Origin: Syntrophaceae bacterium UBA2280
GTDB lineage: Bacteria; Desulfobacterota; Syntrophia; Syntrophales; Smithellaceae
Length of the DNA stretch: 64,000 bases
Direction of reading: 5' to 3'
Assembly (NCBI GenBank): GCA_002347685.1
Contig: DDWS01000013.1
Span: 146,472 to 210,471, forward strand
In this document: piece after piece, positions 1,037 to 64,000 of the stretch
How positions within the stretch are numbered: the first letter of the stretch is position 1
Layout of the letters: every line of letters begins with the position of its first letter
Notes under the pieces: generated by a model
Seen by the model: only the letters and a program-made list of their open reading frames with translations
Told to the model about the DNA's origin: nothing
Database searches by the model: none
Program-made: the position numbers and the translations under genes

Positions 1037-3151
1037 TTATACCGCACAAGTGTCCACGGGCGGCTTGATTTCTTCCTTGCCCATAGCCTTGACGACCAGT
1101 TCGGCAAGATCCCAGGTCTGCATCGACTCGGTCATCTGGTTATCCTTGATCCCGTCGGCCATCATAGTCAGACAGAACGGGCAGCCCACGGCAATCGTGT
1201 CGGCCTTGACATCCATCGCCTGCTTCGTACGCGTGTTATTGATGCGATCTCCGATATCTTCTTCCATCCACATTCTCGCACCACCTGCGCCACAGCAGAA
1301 GCTCTTGTCGAGGGTTCTCTCCATTTCGACAACTTCTATGCCGCGGATGGCCTTCAAAATCTGACGCGGTGCGTCATAGATTTTGTTGTAGCGGCCCAGG
1401 AAGCATGAATCGTGATACACAAACCTGCCCTTCAACGCTTCCGGCAGCTTGATTTTGCCGTCGGCGATGAGCTTCGCGATAATCTCGGTGTGGTGATACA
1501 CTTCGTAATTTCCGCCGAAATTGGGGTAATCTTTTTTCATCGCGTTAAAACCGTGCGGACAGATGGCGATGATCTTCTTCACGCCGTATCCGTTCATCGT
1601 GTCAATATTGGCCTGAGCCAGCGCCTGGAAAAGGTACTCGTTACCAGCACGCATGGCGGAATCACCGCAGCAGCCTTCCTCGTTACCCAGGATACCGAAG
1701 CTGACACCCGCTTCCTGCAGAATCTTCGCAAACGCGACGGAAATTTTCTTGCCGCGATCGTCAAACGAACCGGAACAGCCGACGTAGAACAGATATTCCA
1801 CGTTGGGATCTTCGGCCAGTGTCTTGACACCCATCTCTTTGGCCCAGTCGCCGCGAAGATGCGCACCCACACCCCAGGGATTGGAATTGTTCTCCATGTT
1901 GCGGCAGGTCAACTGAAGCTCAGGAGCAAAATCCGCTTCGGTCAGAACCTTGTAGCGTCGCATGTCAATAATTTTCGGCACATGTTCGATGGACGAGGAA
2001 CAATGTTCCATACAATACATACAATTGGTGCAAGCCCACAGTTCATGCAGATCGACCACTTCGCCGACCAGCGCTTTCCCGCCTTCTTCTTCGGTCGGTA
2101 CCTCGCCTGCTTTAGCGGCTTTTACCGCGGCGGGGGCCTTTTCCAGCCAGAAGGTTTTAATGTCCTGAACCAGCTTCTTGGGCGACAGGGGCTTGCCGGT
2201 CAGATAGGCCGGGCAGCCGTCCTGACAGCGACCGCAGCGAGTGCAGGCGTCAGAATCAAAGATCTGCTTCCAGGTGAATTCCTCGAGTTTGCCGACACCG
2301 AATGCCTCGGCGTTTTCAAAATCACGGATTGGTTCAATGTAACCGGTCGGCTTATGGGACTGGAGGAAATGATTCGCGGGTGTCGTAATCATATGCAACA
2401 GACGCGAATAGGGAATGTAGGCGATGAAACCGAGCGCCAGAATGGCATGCACCCACCAACTCGCCAGATGCAGTGTGCGGGCGGTATCCAACTCGACGCC
2501 TGTAAACGTCTTGGCCAATAGCCAGCCCACAAACGACCAGTATTCCCAGGGCGGATTGGTCACGTGAATACGAAGAGCCTCGACAATGAAGCCGGTTACA
2601 ATGATGGCGCCGATGAGCAGCAGAACAATCACGTCGTCCGGCGTGGTGTCCATCTTGCCCTTATAGCCCAGACGATCGGGTTTTGTGACGAAGCGGCGGT
2701 CGAGCGCCATGATCACACCGACCAGCACGAACAATCCGAAGAGATCCAACAGGAAAGAAAAGCCTAAATAAAAATTGCCTTTGAGAAATGTCCAGCCGAA
2801 CAGGGGTTCCGTGACATGGTGCTGACCTGCGTCAAAAGCGGCGCCGAAAATCAAAACAAAAAAGCCGAAAAAGATCAGGCCATGCATGATGCCGGGATAA
2901 AGGTCACGCCAGGTCTTCACCTGCAACAACCCTTCAAGAATGACGGCTTTCACTCGTTCGCCCATATTGTCTAAACGCATTTCCGGCTTGCCCATGGCTT
3001 TCCACATCTGCCAGCGGCGGTAGACACCATAGCCGAAAATGGCCATCGCGACCGCCGTAAGTGCGAAAAGTAGGATCTCAAACGCCGGCAGAGGAATGTT
3101 CCAGAAAACCTCTCGACCTTCCATACCTACATAAAATTCATGTTCTTTCAT
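1037..3151 (-). CDS. Membrane-bound Fe-S oxidoreductase: N-terminal multi-TM NarI/DsrM-like domain fused to an HdrD/DsrK/GlpC-like domain with two 4Fe-4S motifs and CCG domains. Probable Etf:quinone oxidoreductase partner.
   Basis: 704 aa. The N-terminus is hydrophobic. Ferredoxin-type motifs CTRCGRCQDGCP and CTNCMYCMEHC are present, as are cysteine-rich CCG-type motifs (GCCGDS, FCCGAGG). It lies directly downstream of etfBA. Confidence 0.8.
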   Translation of the reverse strand: MKEHEFYVGMEGREVFWNIPLPAFEILLFALTAVAMAIFGYGVYRRWQMWKAMGKPEMRLDNMGERVKAVILEGLLQVKTWRDLYPGIMHGLIFFGFFVLIFGAAFDAGQHHVTEPLFGWTFLKGNFYLGFSFLLDLFGLFVLVGVIMALDRRFVTKPDRLGYKGKMDTTPDDVIVLLLIGAIIVTGFIVEALRIHVTNPPWEYWSFVGWLLAKTFTGVELDTARTLHLASWWVHAILALGFIAYIPYSRLLHMITTPANHFLQSHKPTGYIEPIRDFENAEAFGVGKLEEFTWKQIFDSDACTRCGRCQDGCPAYLTGKPLSPKKLVQDIKTFWLEKAPAAVKAAKAGEVPTEEEGGKALVGEVVDLHELWACTNCMYCMEHCSSSIEHVPKIIDMRRYKVLTEADFAPELQLTCRNMENNSNPWGVGAHLRGDWAKEMGVKTLAEDPNVEYLFYVGCSGSFDDRGKKISVAFAKILQEAGVSFGILGNEEGCCGDSAMRAGNEYLFQALAQANIDTMNGYGVKKIIAICPHGFNAMKKDYPNFGGNYEVYHHTEIIAKLIADGKIKLPEALKGRFVYHDSCFLGRYNKIYDAPRQILKAIRGIEVVEMERTLDKSFCCGAGGARMWMEEDIGDRINNTRTKQAMDVKADTIAVGCPFCLTMMADGIKDNQMTESMQTWDLAELVVKAMGKEEIKPPVDTCAV

Positions 3152-3206
3152 TGATCCTCCAACTTATATTGAGGGCTGCTTTGTTTCTTTTCGAATATGA
3201 GCTCTT

Positions 3207-3250
3207 CAAAAAAAAGGTCTTTGCCCCGCATCACGGGGCAAAGACCTTTG
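3207..3250 (-). terminator. Rho-independent (bidirectional-looking) terminator after etfA
   Basis: Perfect 13-bp stem aggtctttgcccc / ggggcaaagacct with a 7-nt loop, flanked by an A-run and a T-run. On the minus strand it is followed by TTTTTTTT. Confidence 0.8.
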
Positions 3251-3255
3251 GTTTT

Positions 3256-4233
3256 TTAAGCAACCAGTTTTTTGCAAACGGCTGTCAGTTCGGGAATGAC
3301 CTTGAACAGATCGTCAACCACACCGTAATCCGCTTTCGTGAAGATGGGGGCTTCCGCATCCTTGTTGATCGCGACAATGCATTTAGATGAGCTCATGCCG
3401 GCCAGGTGCTGAATCGCGCCGGAAATGCCGCAGGCGATATAGAGGTTCGGAGAGACAACCTTACCGGTCTGTCCGACCTGATCTTTCTGAGCCTTCCATC
3501 CGGCATCCACTGCCGCACGGGATGCGCCAACCGTACCTTTGAGCACGTCAGCCAGTTCGTCCAGAATCGCAAATCCTTCAGGGCCTTTCATGCCGCGGCC
3601 GCCGGAAACAATCACTGTGGCTTCCGTCAGGTCGACTTTGCCGCTGGTGTCTTTCTGCACTTCCAGGACCTTGCTCTTGATCGAAGCCGCATCAATGGCC
3701 ACATCGACCTTCACCACTGCACCGGCTTTGGCGTTTTCAGCCGCCGGAAACACATTGGGACGCAGCGAGGCCATCTGCGGGTTCGCAGCTACCACGACTT
3801 CGCCATAACACTTTCCTGCATACATCGGACGGGTTGCAACCAGCTTGCCGCCGTCAATCTTTACGTCCGTGCAATCGGTCGCCAGACCGGTCGCCAGTTT
3901 CGCTGCGACTCGCGAGGACAGATCCTTGCCCTGAACCGACGCGCCCAGAAGCAGAATCGACGGATCGTTTTCTTTCACAATCTTCGCGACGACTTCCGCA
4001 TGGGCTTCCGTAACATAGGGCTCCAGCGCTGCGTTGTCACCAACGAATACTTTATCCACACCGTATTTGCCAAGCTCTACGGCCAGACCTTCAATTCCTG
4101 AACCCAGTAGAATGGCGCTGACTTCATCGCCGGACTGATCAGCCAGCTTGCGGGCTGTCGAAGCCAGCTCCAGGCTGATCTTTCTGAGCGCGCCGTCCCG
4201 CTGTTCTGCAACTATCATGACTCCTTTTGCCAT
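3256..4233 (-). CDS. etfA: Electron transfer flavoprotein alpha subunit
   Basis: 325 aa. The EtfA C-terminal FAD-binding region is present (PNLYIACGISGAIQHLAGM). Confidence 0.9.
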   Translation of the reverse strand: MAKGVMIVAEQRDGALRKISLELASTARKLADQSGDEVSAILLGSGIEGLAVELGKYGVDKVFVGDNAALEPYVTEAHAEVVAKIVKENDPSILLLGASVQGKDLSSRVAAKLATGLATDCTDVKIDGGKLVATRPMYAGKCYGEVVVAANPQMASLRPNVFPAAENAKAGAVVKVDVAIDAASIKSKVLEVQKDTSGKVDLTEATVIVSGGRGMKGPEGFAILDELADVLKGTVGASRAAVDAGWKAQKDQVGQTGKVVSPNLYIACGISGAIQHLAGMSSSKCIVAINKDAEAPIFTKADYGVVDDLFKVIPELTAVCKKLVA

Positions 4234-4254
4234 TTTTAAATCCTCCGCTTTTCT

Positions 4255-5025
4255 TTAAATAGCTTTTGCTTCTTCTCTGAGTAACCGGCCTAATTCAGCC
4301 GCCTTTTGCGCGGGCTCATCTCCACAGATGATCTTTCCGGGAGGTCTGGCCGGAGGCGGAATGGTTTTGGCGACTTTGGCTTTCGCGTCGGTTGCAATAC
4401 CCAGCGCGGCGGCATCTTTCACATCGACCGGTTTCTTCTTTGCCTTCATGATGCCGGGCAGAGATGCGTAACGCGGTTCATTGAGACCTTTCTGCGCCGT
4501 CACGACACAGGGCAGTACCGTTTCAACCGACAGCTGAGCGCCTTCAATCGGGCGAATCACTTTCACCGTGGAACCGGTGTATTCGAGTTTGGTGACCAGG
4601 GTCAGCTGAGGCAGTCCGAGGGCTTCCGCCAGCATCGAACCCACCTGGCCTGCGTCATCATCGATGGCGCGCTGGCCGCATAAAATAATGTCATGGGGCA
4701 GGGTTTTGATCACAGCGGCAAGAGCATTGGCCACAACAAACGCATCCGCACCGTCAAAAACGGGGTCGCAGATGTGGACGCCCTTATCGGCGCCCATTGC
4801 CAGAGCCGTACGGATGGTTTCCATGGCTCTCGCGGGGCCGACAGAAACGACCGTCACTTCGCCGCCGTTCTTCTCTTTGAGTTTCAATGCCTCTTCCACG
4901 CCATACTCGTCATAGGGATTCATCACCCATTTGATCTGGCCTTCTTCGATACCTGAACCGTCAGCTTTGACTTTGATCTGAGCCTCGGTATCCGGCACTT
5001 GCTTCACGCATGCAATAATATTCAC
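4255..5025 (-). CDS. etfB: Electron transfer flavoprotein beta subunit
   Basis: The EtfB N-terminus reads VNIIACVKQVPD. I place the start at the GTG (5025), which is preceded by GGAGG. The ORF-track start at 5076 adds 17 aa that do not look conserved. Confidence 0.85.
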   Translation of the reverse strand: MNIIACVKQVPDTEAQIKVKADGSGIEEGQIKWVMNPYDEYGVEEALKLKEKNGGEVTVVSVGPARAMETIRTALAMGADKGVHICDPVFDGADAFVVANALAAVIKTLPHDIILCGQRAIDDDAGQVGSMLAEALGLPQLTLVTKLEYTGSTVKVIRPIEGAQLSVETVLPCVVTAQKGLNEPRYASLPGIMKAKKKPVDVKDAAALGIATDAKAKVAKTIPPPARPPGKIICGDEPAQKAAELGRLLREEAKAI

Positions 5026-5100
5026 TGTTAAAACCTCCTTCTCCTGCGCGTCGCACAATCGGGGCGATTCGCGCATTAAAATTGTCTTGCAAATTTCGTT

Positions 5101-7119: not shown

Positions 7120-7652
7120 GTTAAGTGTTCCTCCTAAGTTTTAGTTTTTTATATTTTCAAACGTTTACTCAACGTCTCACCACCTTGAAAAATCCCACCA
7201 GAAACCCTGCTGATCCGTATCACAAATCGGGATTGCGCCTGCAAACACGAGCGCTTTGGTACGCTTAAGGTGCAAGCAATGAGCAGCTGACTCACTGAAG
7301 AGGAAGTGCGCCACTGTTTGTGAGCACTTAAAATAACTTTGACCTTAAGCCGCAAAGCGTGTCGGAGAGCCCGCCTGCGCCAATTTCTTTTTTAAAAAAA
7401 CTGCTTGCCCCTGATACGCATCCTGATACGGGGCACGCCAGGAGATGTCATCCTGAAAGCCTTGAATCTCGCTGAATTTACGAACATGGGGTCATAATTT
7501 GACCGCAAGTCAATCTACCCTTGCGCTCTCACCTACCTTAATATGAACCCCGTGTCAAGAATTATTTGGGTTCGCAAAAGGGCAAAAAAACGCTTTCGGC
7601 GCAGAACCGCCAAATAAATATTATGTTAATAATATCAAAAGCATAGTTATCA

Positions 7653-8045
7653 TTATTTTTTACCACATGTCTTGGTCGCCGTAAATTTTTTTATCCCCTG
7701 ACGCCTCCGGCGCATCCATCTCACCGTCGCGCACGCCATATCGGGCAGCATCACCGCTTCGGCCACCTGAAAACTGACCCCTTCGAACGGATTGATCACC
7801 TGGCGAACGCCTTGCGACGGGAGGTATAGCTTGTCGCGATCTTCGGCTTTGGTGGTCTCACAGCAAAGGTCCGACCCGCCGCGCGGCTCGGTCAGGCATT
7901 CCGCCGCAAATGATAACAGAAAGCGGCCTGAATCTGTACAAATTTGGCTCTTTATACCGGTAAAAAAACGCCCTTGACTATTATTCATTATTGTGACCAA
8001 TGATCCGGCAATGCGAGCGTGTTGTTTTTTTAGAATACAGATCAT
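7653..8045 (-). CDS. Hypothetical protein (possibly a gene remnant; start uncertain)
   Basis: The C-terminal two thirds (LTEPRGGSDLCCETT...VRWMRRRRQG) use GC3-rich codons like neighbouring real genes. I see no recognisable family and no convincing RBS. Confidence 0.25.
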   Translation of the reverse strand: MICILKKQHARIAGSLVTIMNNSQGRFFTGIKSQICTDSGRFLLSFAAECLTEPRGGSDLCCETTKAEDRDKLYLPSQGVRQVINPFEGVSFQVAEAVMLPDMACATVRWMRRRRQGIKKFTATKTCGKK

Positions 8046-8067
8046 CTTTATTTAATCAATAAGACGC

Positions 8068-8106
8068 AACCACCGGACGCGCTTTTTGTTCTGGTGGTTT
8101 TTTGTT
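8068..8106 (+). terminator. Orphan plus-strand intrinsic terminator-like hairpin
   Basis: 10-bp stem aaccaccgga / ttctggtggtt with a 12-nt loop, then a run of six T. No annotated plus-strand gene lies upstream. It is about 200 nt upstream of the RRM gene. Confidence 0.5.
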
Positions 8107-8312
8107 CACACCGATGTGCAAACGGTGTTATTGAAAAAGATCATCGCATTGGCGATATCGACAAACCGGGCAAGTGTATCCGTCCGGCAGGTGAGGCATA
8201 CAAGCCCATCCCTTCAACCTTCCTTCTCAACCAGGAGCTGGACGGGGGTGAATTTGATGCTTTGTGGGGCCCCGTCGGGGAATGAAGATTAAAATGATGA
8301 AAGGGATAGAAG

Positions 8313-8666
8313 ATGAACAAGAATTTGTATGTCGGCAACCTGTCTTTCAAGGTCACGGATGAAGACCTGAAGGCAAATTTTTCAGAAGCGGGAGAAGTCG
8401 CCACAGCGGCGATCATCAAGGACAAATTCACCGGGCAGTCCAAGGGATTTGGATTCGTCGAGATGAAAACGGAAGAAGGCGCCACTCAGGCCATTGAGAA
8501 ATTTCACGGCGGCATGCTCGACGGCAAAGCCATTACCGTGAATGAAGCCAGACCCAAGAAAGAATTCAGCGCCGGTGGAAACCGCGGCGGTGGAAACCGC
8601 AGCGGTGGCGGCGGTGGCTTTGGCAATCGCAGCGGTGGCGGTGGCGGCGGTCGCGGCAGATACTAG
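8313..8666 (+). CDS. RNA-binding protein, single RRM domain with a Gly/Arg-rich tail
   Basis: 117 aa. RNP-2 is LYVGNL and RNP-1 is KGFGFVEM. The C-terminus reads GGNRGGGNRSGGGGGFGNRSGGGGGGRGRY. Confidence 0.9.
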   Translation: MNKNLYVGNLSFKVTDEDLKANFSEAGEVATAAIIKDKFTGQSKGFGFVEMKTEEGATQAIEKFHGGMLDGKAITVNEARPKKEFSAGGNRGGGNRSGGGGGFGNRSGGGGGGRGRY

Positions 8667-21150: not shown

Positions 21151-22110
21151 ATGCAAAGTCGGGATCAGCTGATGAATATGAAGTGGAAAAAAAAGGGGCA
21201 AATCTTTGTTCCGCCAGGTAACGGATTTTTCAAGACTCACGTAACCCGTTCAATACCTTATCGTATCGATCCTTCAACATTACGCATTTATTTTTCATCG
21301 CGCAGCAGCGAAGACATCCCATACCCTACCTTCATAGACGTTGACCCCGCATGTCCAGATAGGATATTACATATCAACGCAACTCCAATGATGGACTTGG
21401 GCAGAACCGGAACTTTTGACGACTCGGGTATCACGCCAACATGTATTCTGAAGCATAAAAATCAAGTAATGATGTATTATGTCGGATGGAAAAGGCGTCG
21501 CTACGGTGTTACCATTGAAGCATCCATCGGGCTTGCAATTTTAACCGACCACGGCACCAAGTTAAAAAGATGTTTTGAAGGCCCTATTATAGGTCAGGAT
21601 AAAAATCATCCCATCATGACGGCGGCACCTTTCGTTTTGTTTGACAATCGCAGATACAGAATGTGGTATTGTTCCGCTACAGAATGGAGGCAATGCAGCG
21701 GATCACCCGAACCCATTTATACCGTATGCTACGCTGAATCGGAAAACGGAATAGATTGGAAACCGCTAAGAAAACCTATTATACAAAACAGATTTGATGG
21801 CGAAGTTGTTTCTGCGCCATGGGTAATCAAGGCAGGCAACATTTATCACATGTGGTATTCAACGCGAGGTTCCGCGACAAACGAAGATAAGAAGTTCGTC
21901 ATTGGTTACGCAAAATCCCCTGATGGCGTCAAGTGGCGGCGCCTTGACAGCCAAGCGGGAATTGAGCGGTCGGAAGACGGATGGGATTCCGAAATGATTT
22001 GTTATCCTTCATTCTTTACCCATAAGGATATTACCTATATGTTTTACTCCGGCAACAATGTCGGGAAAGGCGGGCTCGGCTACGCCGAGACGAAAAATTT
22101 TCTATTGTGA
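21151..22110 (+). CDS. Uncharacterised beta-propeller-like protein (GH32/43/130-like fold suspected) of polysaccharide clusters
   Basis: 319 aa. Repeated W/Y-rich blade-like segments are present (MMYYVGW, YRMWYCS, YHMWYST, YMFYSG). The family assignment is tentative. Confidence 0.4.
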   Translation: MQSRDQLMNMKWKKKGQIFVPPGNGFFKTHVTRSIPYRIDPSTLRIYFSSRSSEDIPYPTFIDVDPACPDRILHINATPMMDLGRTGTFDDSGITPTCILKHKNQVMMYYVGWKRRRYGVTIEASIGLAILTDHGTKLKRCFEGPIIGQDKNHPIMTAAPFVLFDNRRYRMWYCSATEWRQCSGSPEPIYTVCYAESENGIDWKPLRKPIIQNRFDGEVVSAPWVIKAGNIYHMWYSTRGSATNEDKKFVIGYAKSPDGVKWRRLDSQAGIERSEDGWDSEMICYPSFFTHKDITYMFYSGNNVGKGGLGYAETKNFLL

Positions 22111-28015: not shown

Positions 28016-28399
28016 TTAATCCGCCGGACTGCCACGGAGCCCGGCGGCCAGATTCAGGTTGATATCCATAATGATCTTGAGCTTTTCCGGCTGAGGGTCG
28101 GCCATGATCTGAATGATGCGGTTGTCGATAAATACACTGAGCGTCAGGATGCTCTGGCGGATCTCGATCGGAAGCGGATTATCGTCTCTGACCAGTTCCG
28201 ACTGGAGGATGCTCCAGACGACCTGGTTGGTTCTAAGCGCTTCGGCCAAGAGGTCATCACGATCAGGCGTGTCCCAGTTTTTCACGCAATCGGACAAAAG
28301 CAGCGCGCAACGTGTCAGCGCGGCGGCCTCGATGTCTCTCCCCGACATATTATCGGTTTTCTGTGCTGTTCGATAGGCTTCGAGTTCTCTCGGATACAC
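28016..28399 (-). CDS. flaF: Flagellar biosynthesis regulator FlaF, paralog 1
   Basis: 127 aa, with a GTG start. The FlaF pattern is present (AYRTAQ...REIEAAALTRCALLL...NQVVWSILQSEL...NPLPIEIRQSILTLSVF). Confidence 0.75.
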   Translation of the reverse strand: MYPRELEAYRTAQKTDNMSGRDIEAAALTRCALLLSDCVKNWDTPDRDDLLAEALRTNQVVWSILQSELVRDDNPLPIEIRQSILTLSVFIDNRIIQIMADPQPEKLKIIMDINLNLAAGLRGSPAD

Positions 28400-28434
28400 C
28401 GCCCACCCCCTGACCCTTTTTTATGACTATTACT

Positions 28435-28461
28435 TTATCGGTATTTACAAGAGAAACATTA
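28435..28461 (-). promoter_or_regulatory. Sigma-28 (FliA)-type promoter for flaF paralog 1
   Basis: The minus strand reads TAATGTTT-N11-ACCGATAA, against the consensus TAAAGTTT-N11-GCCGATAA. It lies about 36 nt upstream of the GTG start. Confidence 0.55.
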
Positions 28462-28602
28462 AGCCCATGCAACGTAATAGATACTTTCAAGGCTGATCAT
28501 AATCGTCGATAAAACCTGACCAATCTTGATGATACTGGCATTTATCGGATGAATAATGTAGGATAGCAGACACAAAGGCAAACGATATTGCAGAGGAAAA
28601 CT

Positions 28603-28980
28603 GTGAAAAACGATATCTGTCATGAACTGCGGAACAAAAAACCCCTTATGCCGGTTCTGCCGGATGAGCAAAAAGTGAACGAGCAGGATTCTCTTTCGTT
28701 ATCTTTGCTACGACCATCTTTGTTCTGGGATGTGAATCCGGATAGGCTGGACGCAGACCGGCATGCAGCCTTCATTATTGTCCGTGTTATGGAACGCGGC
28801 ACACGGGAAGATGTCAACACCGTCTGGCATTATTACGGTGAGGAGACTATAAAAATACATCTTTTAGCCGCGAGATCATTGCATAAAAAGACCATTTCCT
28901 ATTTTGCAAATAAGTTCAGTGTCAGCCGCGCACAATTTAAAAGCTTTCACCACGGAGAGCAGGTCCAGCCATGGCCTTAA
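28603..28980 (+). CDS. Small partner protein of the AbiEii-like nucleotidyltransferase (putative antitoxin-like; LFWD motif family)
   Basis: It contains PSLFWDVNPDRLD...HAAFIIVRVMERG, a pattern I recognise from proteins encoded upstream of AbiEii-like genes. The start is ambiguous (28588 TTG, 28603 GTG after AGAGGA, or 28648 ATG). The 3' end overlaps the next gene by 10 nt. Confidence 0.5.
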   Translation: MKNDICHELRNKKPLMPVLPDEQKVNEQDSLSLSLLRPSLFWDVNPDRLDADRHAAFIIVRVMERGTREDVNTVWHYYGEETIKIHLLAARSLHKKTISYFANKFSVSRAQFKSFHHGEQVQPWP

Positions 28981-29588
28981 CAGAAATTATTAAAATAGCC
29001 GTTACTGACGATGTTCTAACGCTTCTTCATAGAATTATGCAGGATGCGGTTTTTGATGATTTTTATCTGGTTGGCGGTACAGCGCTGGCTTTGCAAATTG
29101 GACACCGCGTATCGATAGATATCGACCTTTTTACGGGTGAAATATTCGATACCGACCAAATCAGCGATTATATCTGTCATGTTTACGAAGGTAAAGAAAT
29201 AGAGGTGGAACGAAACACCGTTCGAGCAATCATCGATAGCATCAAGCTCGATTTAATGACTCACAAGTATCCATTGCTTGAACCACTCGAAAAAAAAGAG
29301 AATATCCGCATGGCAAATCTAAAAGACATCGCCGCTATGAAAATTAACGCCATTGCCAGTCGGGGAAGCAAAAAGGATTTCTGGGATTTTGCCGCCCTGC
29401 TTGATTTCTTTCAGGCACAGGAAATGCTTTCGTTTTTTCAATCCAAGTATTCCAATGCAAACGTATGGCACGCCGAAAAATCTTTGTCGTATTTCGACGA
29501 CGCCGACCTGGAGCCTGACCCAAATGACATAACAGGGAAAAACTGGGAGGAAATCAAGCAACGCATCAACAGTTCACTAAAGGTTTGA
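28971..29588 (+). CDS. Nucleotidyltransferase AbiEii/AbiGii toxin-family protein
   Basis: 205 aa. The motif FYLVGGTALALQIGHRVSIDIDLF is typical of the AbiEii-like NTase fold. Confidence 0.65.
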   Translation: MALTEIIKIAVTDDVLTLLHRIMQDAVFDDFYLVGGTALALQIGHRVSIDIDLFTGEIFDTDQISDYICHVYEGKEIEVERNTVRAIIDSIKLDLMTHKYPLLEPLEKKENIRMANLKDIAAMKINAIASRGSKKDFWDFAALLDFFQAQEMLSFFQSKYSNANVWHAEKSLSYFDDADLEPDPNDITGKNWEEIKQRINSSLKV

Positions 29589-29594
29589 AATTTT

Positions 29595-29631
29595 TAGACC
29601 TACAGCCTAACAGCCCACAGCCTAATAGCCT
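29595..29631. repeat. Heptanucleotide tandem-repeat tract
   Basis: Sequence is tagaccta cagccta acagccc acagccta atagcct. It fills the gap between the AbiEii stop (29588) and the flaF2 stop (29638). Confidence 0.7.
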
Positions 29632-29637
29632 TTAATA

Positions 29638-30021
29638 TCATTCCGCCGCGCTGCCTCTGAGCCCCGCGGCGAGATTCAGGTTAATGTCGATGACGATCTT
29701 GAGTTTTTCCGGTTCGGGATTCGCCATAACATCAATAATTCGTTTATCAACAAAAAGGCTGAGTGTCAGGATGTTGTTGCGAATCTCGACGGGCAGGGGA
29801 TTGTCATCTTTCACCAGCTCCGATTGTAGAATACTCCAGACCACCTGGTTGGTTCTGAGCGCCTCGGCTAAATTTTCATCACGGTCGGGGGCATTCCAGT
29901 GTTTACGGCAATCCTCCAGCAAGAGTGCGCAACGGGTCAGCGCAGCGGCTTCAATATCGCGGCCGGACATATTATTGGAATTCTGTGCGGTTCTATAGGC
30001 TTCGAGTTGCAGTGCGTACAC
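29638..30021 (-). CDS. flaF: Flagellar biosynthesis regulator FlaF, paralog 2
   Basis: It aligns along its full length with paralog 1. I place the start at the GTG at 30021, which lies 9 nt after GGGAGG and matches the paralog 1 N-terminus (YxxxLEAYRTAQ). The ORF track extends it to 30048. Confidence 0.75.
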   Translation of the reverse strand: MYALQLEAYRTAQNSNNMSGRDIEAAALTRCALLLEDCRKHWNAPDRDENLAEALRTNQVVWSILQSELVKDDNPLPVEIRNNILTLSLFVDKRIIDVMANPEPEKLKIVIDINLNLAAGLRGSAAE

Positions 30022-35873: not shown

Positions 35874-35911
35874 CCTTTTACGAACCCGTCAATCATGATG
35901 CGGAGGTTCAT

Positions 35912-37243
35912 ATGGCCAAAAATTTAGTGATTATCGGCGGCGGAGCGGGCGGCGGTTCCACAGCCGCCGAGGCGAAAAGAAACGATCCCTCCCTGAATGT
36001 CACCATGGTGGAGCAGGGAAAATTCGTTGCGTTTGCCGCCTGACCGATGCCCTATTACATCGGTGATGTAATCAAAGACCAGACGAGACTGATCGCGCGG
36101 ACCCCGGAAAAGTTCCGCGAAGGCGGCATTGACGTCCGGACCCGGACACGCGTGAGCGGGATTGACATGGCGCGCGGCGTGGTCGAACTTCAGGAAAACC
36201 AAAACATACCCTATGATTTTCTGGTCATGGCCACGGGCGCGTCCGCGTTTGTGCCGGACATGCCGGGGCTGGACCTTCCCGACGTTTTTGCACTGCGCAA
36301 TCTCGAAGACGCCATCCTCATCAAGACCCGGCTCAAAGAGAAAAACGCGAAACACGTCGTCATCATCGGCGGCGGTTTTATCGGACTGGAAATGTGCGAA
36401 GCCCTGCATGCCGCAGGGATTGCCGCAACCATCATCCACAAAGACGGGCTTCCGGCCAACCGTTGGGACGCTGCCCTGTCAGCGGTCATGCTCGAAGAAC
36501 TGCTGGCCCACGGCGTGGAATTCGTCGCAAATGCGACGGCGCAATCCATTGAAACGGGCAAGGACGCCCCGCTTCGCGTTAAGACAGACCGGGGCGACTA
36601 TGAAGGCGATCTGGTCATGCTGGCCATCGGCGTGAGGCCGGATTCCCAACTGGCGAAAGCGGCCGGCTTGAAGATCGGCGCCTCCGGCGCCGTGGCGGTC
36701 AATTTCGCCCAGCAGACCTCCATTGAAAATATCTACGCGGTGGGAGACTGCTGCGAATCTTTTCATAAAGTCAGCCGTCGCTGGGTCAACCTTCCGCTGG
36801 GCGACATTGCCAACAAGCAGGGGCGTGTCGCGGGGCGCAACATCGGCGGCCGGCCGCTCACGTTCGACGGCATGGTCGGCGCGCAGTCCTTCCGGCTTTT
36901 CAATCTGGAATGCGCGGCTTGCGGCCTTTCGGAAAAAGAAGCCGTCGCCGCAGGCTTTTCCCCCGCGAGCAACATCACCTGGGGGAGCGCCATGGCGCCT
37001 TCGATGGGCATAAAAAAAATCGGGCTGAAACTGACTGCCGACAGTTCATCGGGCGGTCTACTGGGTGCACAGGCGGTCGGGGTGTCCGGAGCGGTGGACC
37101 GCATCAACACCCTGTCTGTCGCGCTGGCGGCAGGCATGAACCTGGATCAAATCGGCTGGCTGGACCTGGCCTACGCTCCGCCGTTTGGGCCGGCCTGGGA
37201 TATCATTCACAACGCGGCCCAGGCGCTGGGCCGGACACTATAA
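35912..37243 (+). CDS. CoA-disulfide reductase / NADH oxidase-family pyridine nucleotide-disulfide oxidoreductase with in-frame UGA (probable selenocysteine at residue 44)
   Basis: The ATG at 35912 follows GGAGG and opens MAKNLVIIGGGAGGGSTAAEAKR...VAFAA-TGA-PMPYYIGD. The TGA (36041-36043) is in the same frame as the 36047..37243 ORF. It occupies the position of the redox Cys in SFANC(G/A)LPY.IG of CoADR/Nox/Npx. The total of 443 codons is typical for the family. Confidence 0.7.
36054..36072 (+). promoter_or_regulatory. Candidate bacterial SECIS hairpin
   Basis: Perfect 8-bp stem attacatc / gatgtaat with a GGU apical loop, beginning 10 nt after the TGA. An alternative overlapping hairpin is accgatg / catcggt. 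Confidence 0.5.
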
Positions 37244-49199: not shown

Positions 49200-50330
49200 A
49201 TGTGTCGTTTGTTTTCCATAACCAGTAACGAAGCGCTCTCTCCGATCGTGGCCATCAACGCGCTCAATGTGATGAAAGAAGGCCATGATGGTTCCGGTGT
49301 GGGATTGTTTCTGACGGATCTGGGCGGAGAGTTCGAAAAATTTAAAAACGAGCCGATTCTTTCCGGTATTTTTTCCAATGAAGGCATCAAGGCGCTCGAC
49401 CGCTTCATGATCGATCTGGATTTTATGGTGAAGTATAAGCTGTCTTTCCGTCCGAATAGACCGACACCTCCGGGAACGCCGAAAAGAGACAACTACGTCA
49501 TCCGTGTCTACGAATATCCGGCGGACTGGGAAGGTTTCAGTCAGGAAGACATTCAGTTTCGTCTGATGATGATCCAGCTCAGGCTTCGGGAAATGGGCGA
49601 AAAGGATCAATCCATGCTGATCTTCAGCTTCTGGCCGGATGTGATCATGATCAAGGAAGTGGGAGATCCTTTAACGGTGGCTGAATATCTGGGGCTCGAC
49701 CGCAAGGAGCTATCCGCGCGGACCATCTTAAGCCAGGGCCGCCAGAATACGAACTACGCCATCGATATCTACGCCTGCCATCCTTTCTTCATTCAGGGAA
49801 TGTCGACGATGACCAACGGCGAAAACACGGCGTTTGTTCCGATCCGGGAGTTTCTGATGTCGCGCGATTTCCCCGGCTACGCGGGCTACCAGTCGGACTC
49901 GGAGGTCTTCGCCCACATTTTGCACTACATGCACAACAAACTGGGTCTAAGCATGGAGATGTATAAACACATCATCACGCCGCTCAAAGACAATGAACTG
50001 ACCCGTCATCCCGATGGCGGCCTGCTTAGAAATCTAAAACAGAGCTGCCGGCCTCTGATCATTGACGGTCCGAACTGTGTGATCGGCTGCCTGCCGGATA
50101 AATCGATGTTCATGGTGCAGGACTCCAAAAAACTGCGCCCCGGCATTGTCGGCGGCCGGCCGGGCATCTTCGCGTTTTCGTCGGAAATGTGCGGGCTGGA
50201 CGCGGCCATTCCGGAGCGGGACATTAATCTCGATTATCAGCCGATGAAGTATGAAACCGTTTTAGTCCGCAGCGAGCGGCAGGAGATCGTAAAATGGAGC
50301 CAATGGGACACATTACCCCCTCTACACTAA
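49200..50330 (+). CDS. Glutamate synthase, class-II (Ntn) glutamine amidotransferase domain protein (archaeal-type split GltB, part 1)
   Basis: 376 aa. It starts MCRLF, so the catalytic Cys is exposed once the Met is removed. The GltS amidotransferase-like pattern is present. Confidence 0.75.
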   Translation: MCRLFSITSNEALSPIVAINALNVMKEGHDGSGVGLFLTDLGGEFEKFKNEPILSGIFSNEGIKALDRFMIDLDFMVKYKLSFRPNRPTPPGTPKRDNYVIRVYEYPADWEGFSQEDIQFRLMMIQLRLREMGEKDQSMLIFSFWPDVIMIKEVGDPLTVAEYLGLDRKELSARTILSQGRQNTNYAIDIYACHPFFIQGMSTMTNGENTAFVPIREFLMSRDFPGYAGYQSDSEVFAHILHYMHNKLGLSMEMYKHIITPLKDNELTRHPDGGLLRNLKQSCRPLIIDGPNCVIGCLPDKSMFMVQDSKKLRPGIVGGRPGIFAFSSEMCGLDAAIPERDINLDYQPMKYETVLVRSERQEIVKWSQWDTLPPLH

Positions 50331-62582: not shown

Positions 62583-64000
62583 AATTACGCCAAGAAATCC
62601 CCGATGATTCCGGCCGCCCCCGCGAGGAGTGCGGCGTATTTGCCGTTTACGGTCATGAAGACGCTGCGCGCGTCGCTTTTTTCGGCCTTTTCGCCCTCCA
62701 GCACCGCGGGCAGGAATCGGCGGGCATCGTCAGCTCCGACGGCTGCCAGGTCAGAGAGCACAAGGGCATGGGCCTGGCCTCTGCCGTGTTCGAGGAAGCG
62801 ACGCTCCTGAAGCTTGCCGGTTCGCTGGCTATCGGCCATGTCCGCTACTCCACAACCGGATCCTCCACGCTGTCTAACGCTCAGCCGTTTTTAGCCCATG
62901 TCGGCGAGGAGTATTACGCGCTGGGACACAACGGCAACATCGTCAACGCGCAAAAACTGCGCGCGGAACTGGAAGACAGCGGATCTATTTTCCAATCGAC
63001 CATGGACAGCGAGGTCATCATCCATTTGATGGCGCCGCATCTGAAAAAAGGGCTGGAAGAAGCCCTGACGATCGCTCTGGCACGGGTGGAAGGAGCCTAC
63101 AGCCTAGTGATGCTGACCCGCGACAGAATCATCGCCGCCCGCGATCCGCGCGGATTCAGGCCGCTGGCCCTGGGACAACTCAACGGCGGATGGGTGGTCG
63201 CCTCCGAAACCTGCGCGTTTGACCTGGTCGGCGCCCGGTACGTCCGGGACGTTGAACCCGGCGAGATCCTCATCATCGACGCCAACGGGTGTCAAAGTCT
63301 CAAGCCGTTCGCTTTGGTGAAACACTGCCACTGCATTTTCGAGCTGATTTATTTCGCGCGTCCCGACAGCCAGATCTTCGGCCAGAATGTCTACCTGTGC
63401 CGCAAGCGCCTGGGCCATCAACTGGCCCGTGAATATTGTCCGGATGTCGACTTGGTGATGCCCTTTCCGGATTCCGGAAATTATGCGGCAATTGGGTATG
63501 CAGAACAAAGCGGTCTTCCTTTCGAAATGGGCATGATTCGCAACCACTATGTCGGGAGGACGTTTATTCAACCCACCCAACCGATGCGCGATTTTGCCGT
63601 ACGCGTCAAGCTCAACCCGGTCAAGCCTCTTTTGGAAGGCAAGAAAGTCATGATCGTCGAAGATTCCATCATACGAGGCACAACCAGCCGCAACCGCGTG
63701 AAGCATCTGCAGGGGATCGGTATCAAGGAGCTTCACATGGTCATCAGCTGTCCGCCCACCCTGTTTCCCTGTCCCTACGGCATCGACTTTTCCTCCAAAG
63801 GAGAGCTCATCGCCGCCAAAAAGGAAAACGAAAAAGCCATTGCCGCATTTATCGGCCTGGATTCGCTCCATTACCTGACCGTAGACGGCATGGTCCAGGC
63901 CACCGGCATGCCCAGAGAGTGCTTTTGCCTGGCCTGCTACACCGGCGATTACCCCATCGCCCCGCCCGAGAAGATCGACAAATTCTGCATGGAAATGAAA
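62579..64000 (+). CDS. purF: Amidophosphoribosyltransferase (3' end runs off the window)
   Basis: This gene is not in the ORF track because it is open at the window edge. The ATG at 62579 overlaps the carB stop (ATGA). The translation reads [50 protein letters not shown]... and ends ...[18 protein letters not shown]. Confidence 0.9.

Follow-up and report, generated by a model that had tools for sequence, protein, structure and literature searches.

The locus considered here raises the question of whether two open reading frames (ORFs) separated by a TGA codon represent two genes or a single one. It is located at positions 35912-37243 of a 64,000-nucleotide stretch of DNA from Syntrophaceae bacterium UBA2280 (contig DDWS01000013.1, positions 146,472 to 210,471), which was analysed as a whole and is hereafter called the window. 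The mechanical ORF list for the locus contains only the ORF 36047..37243 (398 aa) and an antisense one, 35924..36439, whereas the public annotation of the identical sequence consists of a 43-aa ORF followed by a 398-aa ORF. According to the data reported below, the locus most probably (with a probability of roughly 0.88) represents one gene of 443 codons, in which a UGA is recoded in dependence on a selenocysteine insertion sequence (SECIS) and would be read as selenocysteine (Sec).

Structure of the Gene

The reading frame opens at ATG 35912, which is preceded by a Shine-Dalgarno sequence, GGAGG (35902..35906, plus strand), read directly in the DNA and separated from the start codon by a 5-nt spacer; the N-terminus translated from this ATG is MAKNLVIIGGGAGGGSTAAEAKR. 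The complete coding sequence (35912..37243, plus strand) comprises 443 sense codons, counting the TGA, followed by TAA 37241-37243, and is predicted to code for a flavoprotein of the pyridine-nucleotide-disulfide oxidoreductase (PNDOR) class using flavin adenine dinucleotide (FAD) and reduced nicotinamide adenine dinucleotide (phosphate), NAD(P)H. The TGA is codon 44 (36041..36043, plus strand), in the local context VAFAA-TGA-PMPYYIGD; it falls on the column of the single redox-active cysteine (Cys) and is here interpreted as Sec. An earlier note on this DNA had already proposed that the GGAGG-preceded ATG 35912 opens an FAD-binding N-terminus, that the frame crosses TGA 36041-36043 into the 36047..37243 ORF, and that the junction is VAFAA-[TGA]-PMPYYIGD; the sequence and its translation agree with all this. 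The same note dismissed the minus-strand ORF 35924-36439 as an artefact, and rightly so: it is a by-product of the conserved plus-strand gene that occupies the locus.

The start used by gene callers, ATG 36047, has no Shine-Dalgarno sequence before it. This codon 46 (36047-36049) is Met (ATG) in 29 out of 44 Sec forms (the TGA-bearing genes described in the next section) and Thr in the other 15. It is also Thr in all 29 Cys forms, two residues past the catalytic Cys. The ATG at codon 46 is the source of the false start, and the CCG-ATG variants form in addition a competing hairpin of lower energy.

The TGA Codon and Its Column in Related Genes

A locus scan with one genome per bacterial species retrieved 80 loci, nearly all of them titled Smithella, Smithellaceae, Syntrophaceae, Syntrophales or unclassified Deltaproteobacteria, with one bin (L046) titled Candidatus Aminicenantes. 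The motif was locatable in 76 of these orthologous loci, where the codon at the column is TGA in 47 cases, TGT in 20, TGC in 9 and any other codon in none. The TGA-bearing orthologs come from 47 species and reach down to 58% protein identity; TGA is also the codon on the complete Smithellaceae chromosomes OY821638.1 and OY820932.1. Moreover, the search at the protein level revealed two length classes, that is, full-length homologs of about 443 aa (441-459 aa) with 70-78% identity, and homologs of 398-399 aa with 79-100% identity, all of which start at MPYYIGD. In the alignment, all 15 full-length homologs have Cys at the TGA column. The comparison with Cys-containing orthologs that had been suggested as a check of the Sec assignment thus gave the same answer twice: Cys in 15/15 full-length proteins, and TGT or TGC in 29 loci against TGA in 47 out of 76.

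The nucleotide diversity of codons 2-43 in 44 Sec forms is 0.208, 0.117 and 0.555 at the first, second and third codon positions, respectively; therefore, the N-terminal FAD motif must be translated in frame with the rest of the protein and be under selection. Besides, the gene order trxB-lgt-X-terC-spoU-cutA-tkt-pgi (X being the gene under study) is common to Sec and Cys forms, which are therefore orthologs and not paralogs. As far as sequences can tell, the frame is continuous and conserved, a Sec/Cys pair stands at the catalytic column, and the recoding of the UGA is local and not genome-wide.

The Hairpin Downstream of the UGA

Downstream of the TGA, an 8-bp inverted repeat, ATTACATC/GATGTAAT, surrounds a GGT loop at positions 36054-36072. 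The corresponding putative SECIS core hairpin (36054..36072, plus strand) has the stem 36054-36061/36065-36072 (AUUACAUC/GAUGUAAU) and the loop GGU at 36062-36064, with 10 nt from the UGA to the stem and 18 nt from the UGA to the loop. The published criteria for bacterial SECIS elements (bSECIS) include (i-iii) an apical loop of 3-9 nt, an upper stem of 4-16 bp, a G in the first two loop positions and a UGA-loop distance of 16-37 nt, and (iv) a free energy of -7.5 kcal/mol or less. The 3-nt GGN loop, the 8-bp stem and the 18-nt spacing all lie within the ranges i-iii.

The conservation of the hairpin follows the presence of the TGA. In 34 distinct Sec-form sequences all eight stem pairs are formed (272/272 cells, 100%), and compensatory double changes occur at two pairs, from U-A to C-G (L064 and L072) and from C-G to U-A (L018); in each case the 5' arm has acquired the alternative Tyr codon, a synonymous change, and the 3' arm codes for a different residue (Ile/Val). 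The segment TAT TAC ATC GGN GAT GTA AT is near-invariant, synonymous sites included, in 48 Sec forms, whereas the corresponding codons of the 29 Cys forms diverge freely. Accordingly, the entropy of the stem third positions is 0-0.26 bits in the former and 0.8-1.9 bits in the latter, the flanking third positions being equally variable in the two sets (1.25 and 1.28 bits). Within the Sec forms, no column varies more than the third loop base. All eight pairs are possible in 48/48 Sec forms versus 2/29 Cys forms, and the hairpin is the lowest-energy structure of the region +12..+60 in 42/48 versus 2/29.

A SECIS-compatible 8-bp hairpin had been predicted here in the earlier note. Its position, pairing, conservation and SECIS geometry were borne out, although it is not the lowest-energy fold of the single sequence. 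The SECIS check proposed there had a favourable outcome, the loop, stem, loop G-G and spacing agreeing with the published bacterial values and the compensatory conservation being restricted to TGA-bearing genes.

Evidence Against the Reading and Alternative Explanations

Some observations weigh against a SECIS-dependent recoding to Sec. The hairpin alone has a free energy of -5.2 kcal/mol, short of the -7.5 threshold, which is reached only by counting adjacent pairing: the free fold of +12..+60 gives -8.6 kcal/mol and +4..+60 with the hairpin enforced gives -11.9, and with the hairpin enforced 39 out of 48 Sec forms are at -7.5 kcal/mol or below. The single-sequence fold of 36041-36100 favours a different hairpin (z-score -1.1); the covariation amounts to two events, as six of the eight stem pairs are invariant; and no Rfam family matches, either at the gathering threshold or, with E-values up to 10, on 35980-36140, where only chance-level hits appeared. 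In addition, the protein passes no NCBIfam equivalog cutoff among the CoA (coenzyme A)-disulfide reductase (CoADR) and NADH oxidase (Nox) models. Lastly, the search for selA, selB, selC and selD through the 64-kb window, the 10 kb adjoining it on the left and 83 related loci gave no match. It was performed with ARAGORN (window and 60 loci), with tblastn using E. coli SelD/SelA/SelB queries (window and 83 loci) and with Pfam on about 45 window genes; the visible part of the source genome is about 85 kb, and the absence of the Sec genes is uninformative because no more than this is visible.

Concerning the fold, the competing hairpin ACCGAUG/CAUCGGU, which starts at the A of the UGA, was rejected: it is 78.6% paired over the 34 sequences, shows no covariation and has four of its seven pairs broken in 5-23 sequences. 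It would probably also sit inside the ribosome during UGA decoding. The hairpin 36054-36072 is accepted as real because of the comparative evidence, and not because of single-sequence folding.

How else might the TGA be explained? That it is an assembly or sequencing error, or that UGA is a sense codon throughout the genome, appears extremely improbable. The sequence is metagenome-assembled, and certain uncultured bacteria are known to have reassigned UGA; yet the public annotation shows the same TGA and the same split in three independent assemblies, which therefore do not reflect a sequencing error, and TGA also occurs in 47 other genomes. Moreover, TGA is the ordinary stop in 8 out of 23 other homology-supported window genes, among them carA and carB, which terminate where expected; genome-wide reassignment is therefore excluded and the recoding is local. 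We also consider it very improbable that the TGA is a real stop, in which case the locus would be a pseudogene or would code for a 43-residue peptide and a separately started 398-residue protein. Gene callers annotate exactly such a split, and ATG 36047 is available two codons past the TGA. However, 47 species, some with as little as 58% protein identity, keep the TGA at this single column, and in all of them the 43 codons before it stay in frame and are constrained by purifying selection. The 398-aa product would contain neither the catalytic residue nor the GxGxxG motif for FAD, and its start lacks a Shine-Dalgarno sequence, the 15/44 Sec forms with Thr having no start codon there at all.

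The one rival that we consider live, even if quite unlikely, retains the same hairpin and assumes that the UGA is recoded to Cys, always or under scarce selenium, the decoder being a tRNA that mimics tRNA-Sec but carries Cys (selC* tRNA-Cys, its anticodon in Smithella presumed to be UCA), perhaps with a second SelB; the product would be an ordinary Cys enzyme or a Sec/Cys mixture. According to one study (PMC5389517), selC* is present in a composite Smithella genome, a second selB stands beside selC* in Syntrophobacterales and Desulfobacterales, and Cys was shown experimentally to be incorporated at an opal Sec codon by one tRNA-Cys(UCA). That the gene family has switched frequently between Sec and Cys also shows that Cys is tolerated functionally. 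On the other hand, no selC* gene was seen in the window or in the related loci examined, and the same study found that genomes with selC* invariably have the complete Sec machinery (PMC5389517), so that Sec insertion stays the default. Furthermore, were Cys the usual product, there would be little reason for 47 species to keep a costly UGA and hairpin. It is also conceivable, although unlikely, that UGA plus hairpin is an ambiguous codon in the Smithellaceae lineage, whose reading would depend on selenium: Sec in its presence, Cys (via selC*) in its absence. If this were true, one gene would give either a Sec or a Cys enzyme, which could help to explain both the easy TGA/TGY switching and the fossil hairpins of the Cys forms. 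Overall, recoding of the UGA to Sec is the reading that we retain. The data support a 443-aa selenoenzyme as the probable true product, instead of the annotated 398-aa protein. This matters for annotation, since the gene and dozens of its Smithellaceae/Syntrophales orthologs are recorded as 398-aa proteins without the FAD motif or the catalytic residue.

Domain Architecture and Identity of the Enzyme

The analysis of the read-through product with Pfam retrieved Pyr_redox_2 (5e-58, 197.3 bits vs a gathering threshold of 26.1), Pyr_redox (9e-17) and Pyr_redox_dim (3.5e-10, 40.5 bits vs 25.3). With its two dinucleotide-binding domains and its dimerisation domain, the predicted gene product is a member of the PNDOR class. 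The FAD-binding GxGxxG (G9-G14; 35936..35953, plus strand) lies 5' of the TGA and is absent from the 398-aa call. The second GxGxxG (G153-G158; 36368..36385, plus strand) is the NAD(P)H site, Pfam Pyr_redox corresponding to residues 148-224; in the alignment of full-length homologs G153, G154, G155, F156 and I157 do not vary, G158 being almost as constant.

Full-length matches in the PDB are 6ruz, the CoA-disulfide reductases 5l1n/4fx9 and 3kd9, and the NAD(P)H persulfide reductase (Npsr) of A. fulgidus (6pfz), with E-values from 3.6e-86 to 1e-76. The closest structure is 6ruz, an 'NADH oxidase' (3.6e-86, residues 1-437 aligned). Residue 44 aligns without gaps with the conserved Cys of 6ruz, 5l1n/4fx9 and 6pfz, and Cys42 of 6pfz is the active-site Cys placed at the flavin (PMC7969121). 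The claim that the TGA substitutes exactly the catalytic Cys is therefore sustained by the gap-free alignment with the Cys of solved relatives, such as Cys42 of Npsr.

Assigning the protein to a named function is less straightforward. The top NCBIfam match is TIGR03385 (CoADR), with 2.2e-112 and 376 bits, below the equivalog cutoff of 578.8; two further CoADR models, NF007123 (373 bits vs 458) and NF010037 (226 vs 394), are likewise below their cutoffs. Thus, a strict CoA-disulfide reductase was rejected on all three CoADR cutoffs, and an H2O-forming NADH oxidase sensu NF046103 on a score far short of the cutoff (218 bits vs 600). Npsr was rejected as well: it carries a C-terminal rhodanese domain of about 100 residues with a sulfur-accepting Cys (PMC7969121), which is absent here, the protein ending at residue 443 and matching in Pfam only Pyr_redox_2, Pyr_redox and Pyr_redox_dim. 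The CoADR/NADH-oxidase family named in the earlier note was right as to class; nevertheless, the protein is nearer to CoA-disulfide/persulfide reductases than to NADH oxidase/peroxidase, and passes no equivalog cutoff. The motif SF(A/L)xC(G/A)(L/M)PY quoted with it proved only approximate, the clade having V[AS][FY]A[AS]-[U/C]-P[MT]PYYIGD, where U stands for Sec.

On the basis of sequence comparison, we place the enzyme in a putative distinct Syntrophales subfamily within the CoADR/Npsr/Nox branch. The marks of this subfamily are the Pro after the catalytic residue and Cys280 (plus Cys281) after the GD motif. Pro, and not Gly, directly follows Sec/Cys in all 73 clade members. The clade-specific Cys280-Cys281 pair (36749..36754, plus strand) is directly 3' of the FAD-binding GD motif; C280 is invariant (73/73) and 68/73 members also have C281, whether they are Sec or Cys forms. 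In the closest structures the pair is replaced by V-A or C-V. A connection between Cys280 and a metal site near the FAD in 6pfz was considered and found to be unsupported, that site being described as oxygen-rich and unique to the 6pfz enzyme. As for the substrate, we would give about even odds to the reduction of a CoA-linked disulfide, persulfide or polysulfide; an oxygen defence of the NAD(P)H oxidase/peroxidase type is possible, if doubtful, and some other activity is a still smaller prospect.

Proposed Mechanism

In the mechanism that we propose, translation would begin at ATG 35912 and, with UGA 36041-36043 in the aminoacyl (A) site, the mRNA from about +12 on would be outside the ribosome. 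The exposed RNA would fold as the 8-bp hairpin 36054-36072, whose G-G-N loop would be bound by SelB-GTP-Sec-tRNA(Sec), and Sec would be inserted in place of termination. In the resulting FAD flavoprotein, of homodimeric type, Sec44 would be the single redox-active residue beside the flavin; NAD(P)H would reduce FAD, which in turn would reduce the adduct formed by oxidised Sec44. This adduct would be a selenenic acid, or else a selenenylsulfide whose partner is CoA or a sulfane-sulfur substrate. In this sequence of events, SelB binding, the actual incorporation of selenium and the enzyme chemistry are the parts that we infer.

Comparison with Known Selenoproteins and SECIS Elements

The enzyme family was reportedly first described as a selenoprotein family in a 2004 paper, and it is listed as such in several surveys (PMC1794560, PMC9312934, PMC13188914). 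In the 2006 bacterial survey, the Sec-containing 'NADH oxidase' has one instance, from Geobacter metallireducens, and no such selenoprotein is listed for Syntrophus aciditrophicus (PMC1794560). The window protein shares with the catalogued family the superfamily (COG0446/TIGR03385-type), one Sec at the position of the redox-active Cys, a Pro three residues after Sec, an anaerobic deltaproteobacterial lineage and the existence of Cys homologs. It is set apart by its lineage, Smithellaceae/Syntrophales, and by the listed motif, which is U-G-x-P, whereas all 73 clade members have U/C-P-[M/T]-P; the window sequence, U-P-M-P, thus departs from the literal U-G-x-P and keeps the U-x-x-P spacing. We read the U-P-x-P clade as a separate sub-branch and not as excluded from the family, given that U-G-x-P describes an example sequence and is not a definition of the family.

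The full-length fold, the domains, the catalytic column and the C-terminal LAYAPPF motif are those of 6ruz, 4fx9/5l1n, 3kd9 and 6pfz; unlike the window protein, these all use Cys, and they do not have its clade-specific Cys-Cys after GD. As for the RNA element, it resembles the E. coli fdhF-type SECIS and the bSECISearch consensus in being a stem-loop within the coding sequence just 3' of the UGA, with a small G-G apical loop, an upper stem within 4-16 bp and a UGA-loop distance within 16-37 nt (PMC13188914). It differs from the fdhF type in its minimal, AU-rich 8-bp stem and 3-nt loop, and in that no conserved bulge or lower helix is demonstrated.

A further term of comparison comes from a well-known selenoenzyme. 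Mammalian thioredoxin reductase is a Sec-containing FAD/NAD(P)H flavoprotein of the same superfamily. There the Sec belongs to a Gly-Cys-Sec-Gly extension at the C-terminus, through which electrons from a flavin-adjacent CxxxxC dithiol are passed on. In the window protein, unlike in that enzyme, the Sec itself would be the flavin-adjacent redox centre.

Taken together, these comparisons support the view that the window gene belongs to a known selenoprotein family and has an ordinary, though minimal, bacterial SECIS; it is a correction of annotation and not a discovery. It would leave the current understanding of selenoprotein biology unchanged, and would not surprise a specialist. It does extend a selenoprotein family known from few sequences to the syntrophic alkane and fatty-acid degraders of methanogenic environments, where selenium supply could influence redox or sulfur-stress defence.

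Evolution of Sec and Cys Forms within the Clade

The clade provides a natural data set for the gain and decay of SECIS elements, in which 47 Sec and 29 Cys orthologs share one chromosomal location, the core hairpin is only 19 nt long and relics of it survive in some Cys forms. In the neighbour-joining tree, Sec forms are found on all deep branches, with at least three Cys clades nested among them. Three Cys forms bearing TGC and nested among Sec forms, L065, L067 and L069 (10130-10177), keep 7, 6 and 6 of the 8 hairpin pairs, respectively, the relic of L065 being TATTACATCGGTAATGTAATA; these hairpins look like SECIS elements decaying after a Sec-to-Cys switch. One Sec form, L018, stands alone inside the large Cys clade; it has another genomic context, without trxB, lgt and terC as neighbours. 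L018 (10130-10177) may be a retained Sec form or a Cys-to-Sec reversion, and may also be a paralogous copy. Sec/Cys exchange is dynamic in the published picture (PMC1794560), and the nested pattern of the clades agrees with it.

Gene Neighbourhood and Sec Machinery in Related Organisms

The genes upstream of the locus code for a thioredoxin-disulfide reductase (TIGR01292, 383.7 bits vs a cutoff of 343.45) and for Lgt; downstream there are terC, a SpoU methyltransferase gene, cutA, tkt and pgi. That the gene follows trxB and lgt, and so stands beside another thiol-redox gene, had been pointed out before, and the neighbours are confirmed. The conserved position beside trxB is at most suggestive of a functional link, since the block also includes housekeeping genes and holds lgt and the SpoU methyltransferase gene as well.

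Regarding the Sec machinery, the literature lends support at the level of the lineage. Complete selA/selB/selC/selD sets are reported for all selC*-containing genomes, one of which is the composite Smithella genome (PMC5389517), and 19 selenoproteins are listed for Syntrophus aciditrophicus (PMC1794560).

Other Features of the Window

The search for other TGA-split genes in the window gave 38 mechanical candidates, none of them convincing; they are antisense frames or neighbouring genes that happen to share a frame. On the minus strand, at 1037-5076, EtfA and EtfB adjoin a 704-aa membrane iron-sulfur (Fe-S) oxidoreductase with two CCG domains, an arrangement characteristic of reverse electron transfer in syntrophs. 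Among Deltaproteobacteria, the Fe-S oxidoreductases of the GlpC/CCG type are a known selenoprotein family; no in-frame TGA is present in the 704-aa copy of the window.

A region of about 1.1 kb (7150-8300), between acetyl-CoA synthetase and the gene for a glycine-rich RRM RNA-binding protein (8313-8666), has no convincing ORF, and Rfam at the gathering threshold gave no match in it. No Pfam match (E <= 1e-5) was obtained for the ORFs 49200-50330 (376 aa), 21151-22110 (319 aa) and 63104-63871 (255 aa); the first lies directly 5' of split glutamate-synthase-like genes, and for the last there was no exact record in the public gene-position collection.

Finally, at 28016-30021 two flaF paralogs (78% protein identity, with a 300-nt direct repeat at 75%) flank a toxin-antitoxin-like pair, DUF6922 + AbiEii. 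The flaF duplication in this flagellar cluster looks tied to the insertion of the DUF6922 + AbiEii module.

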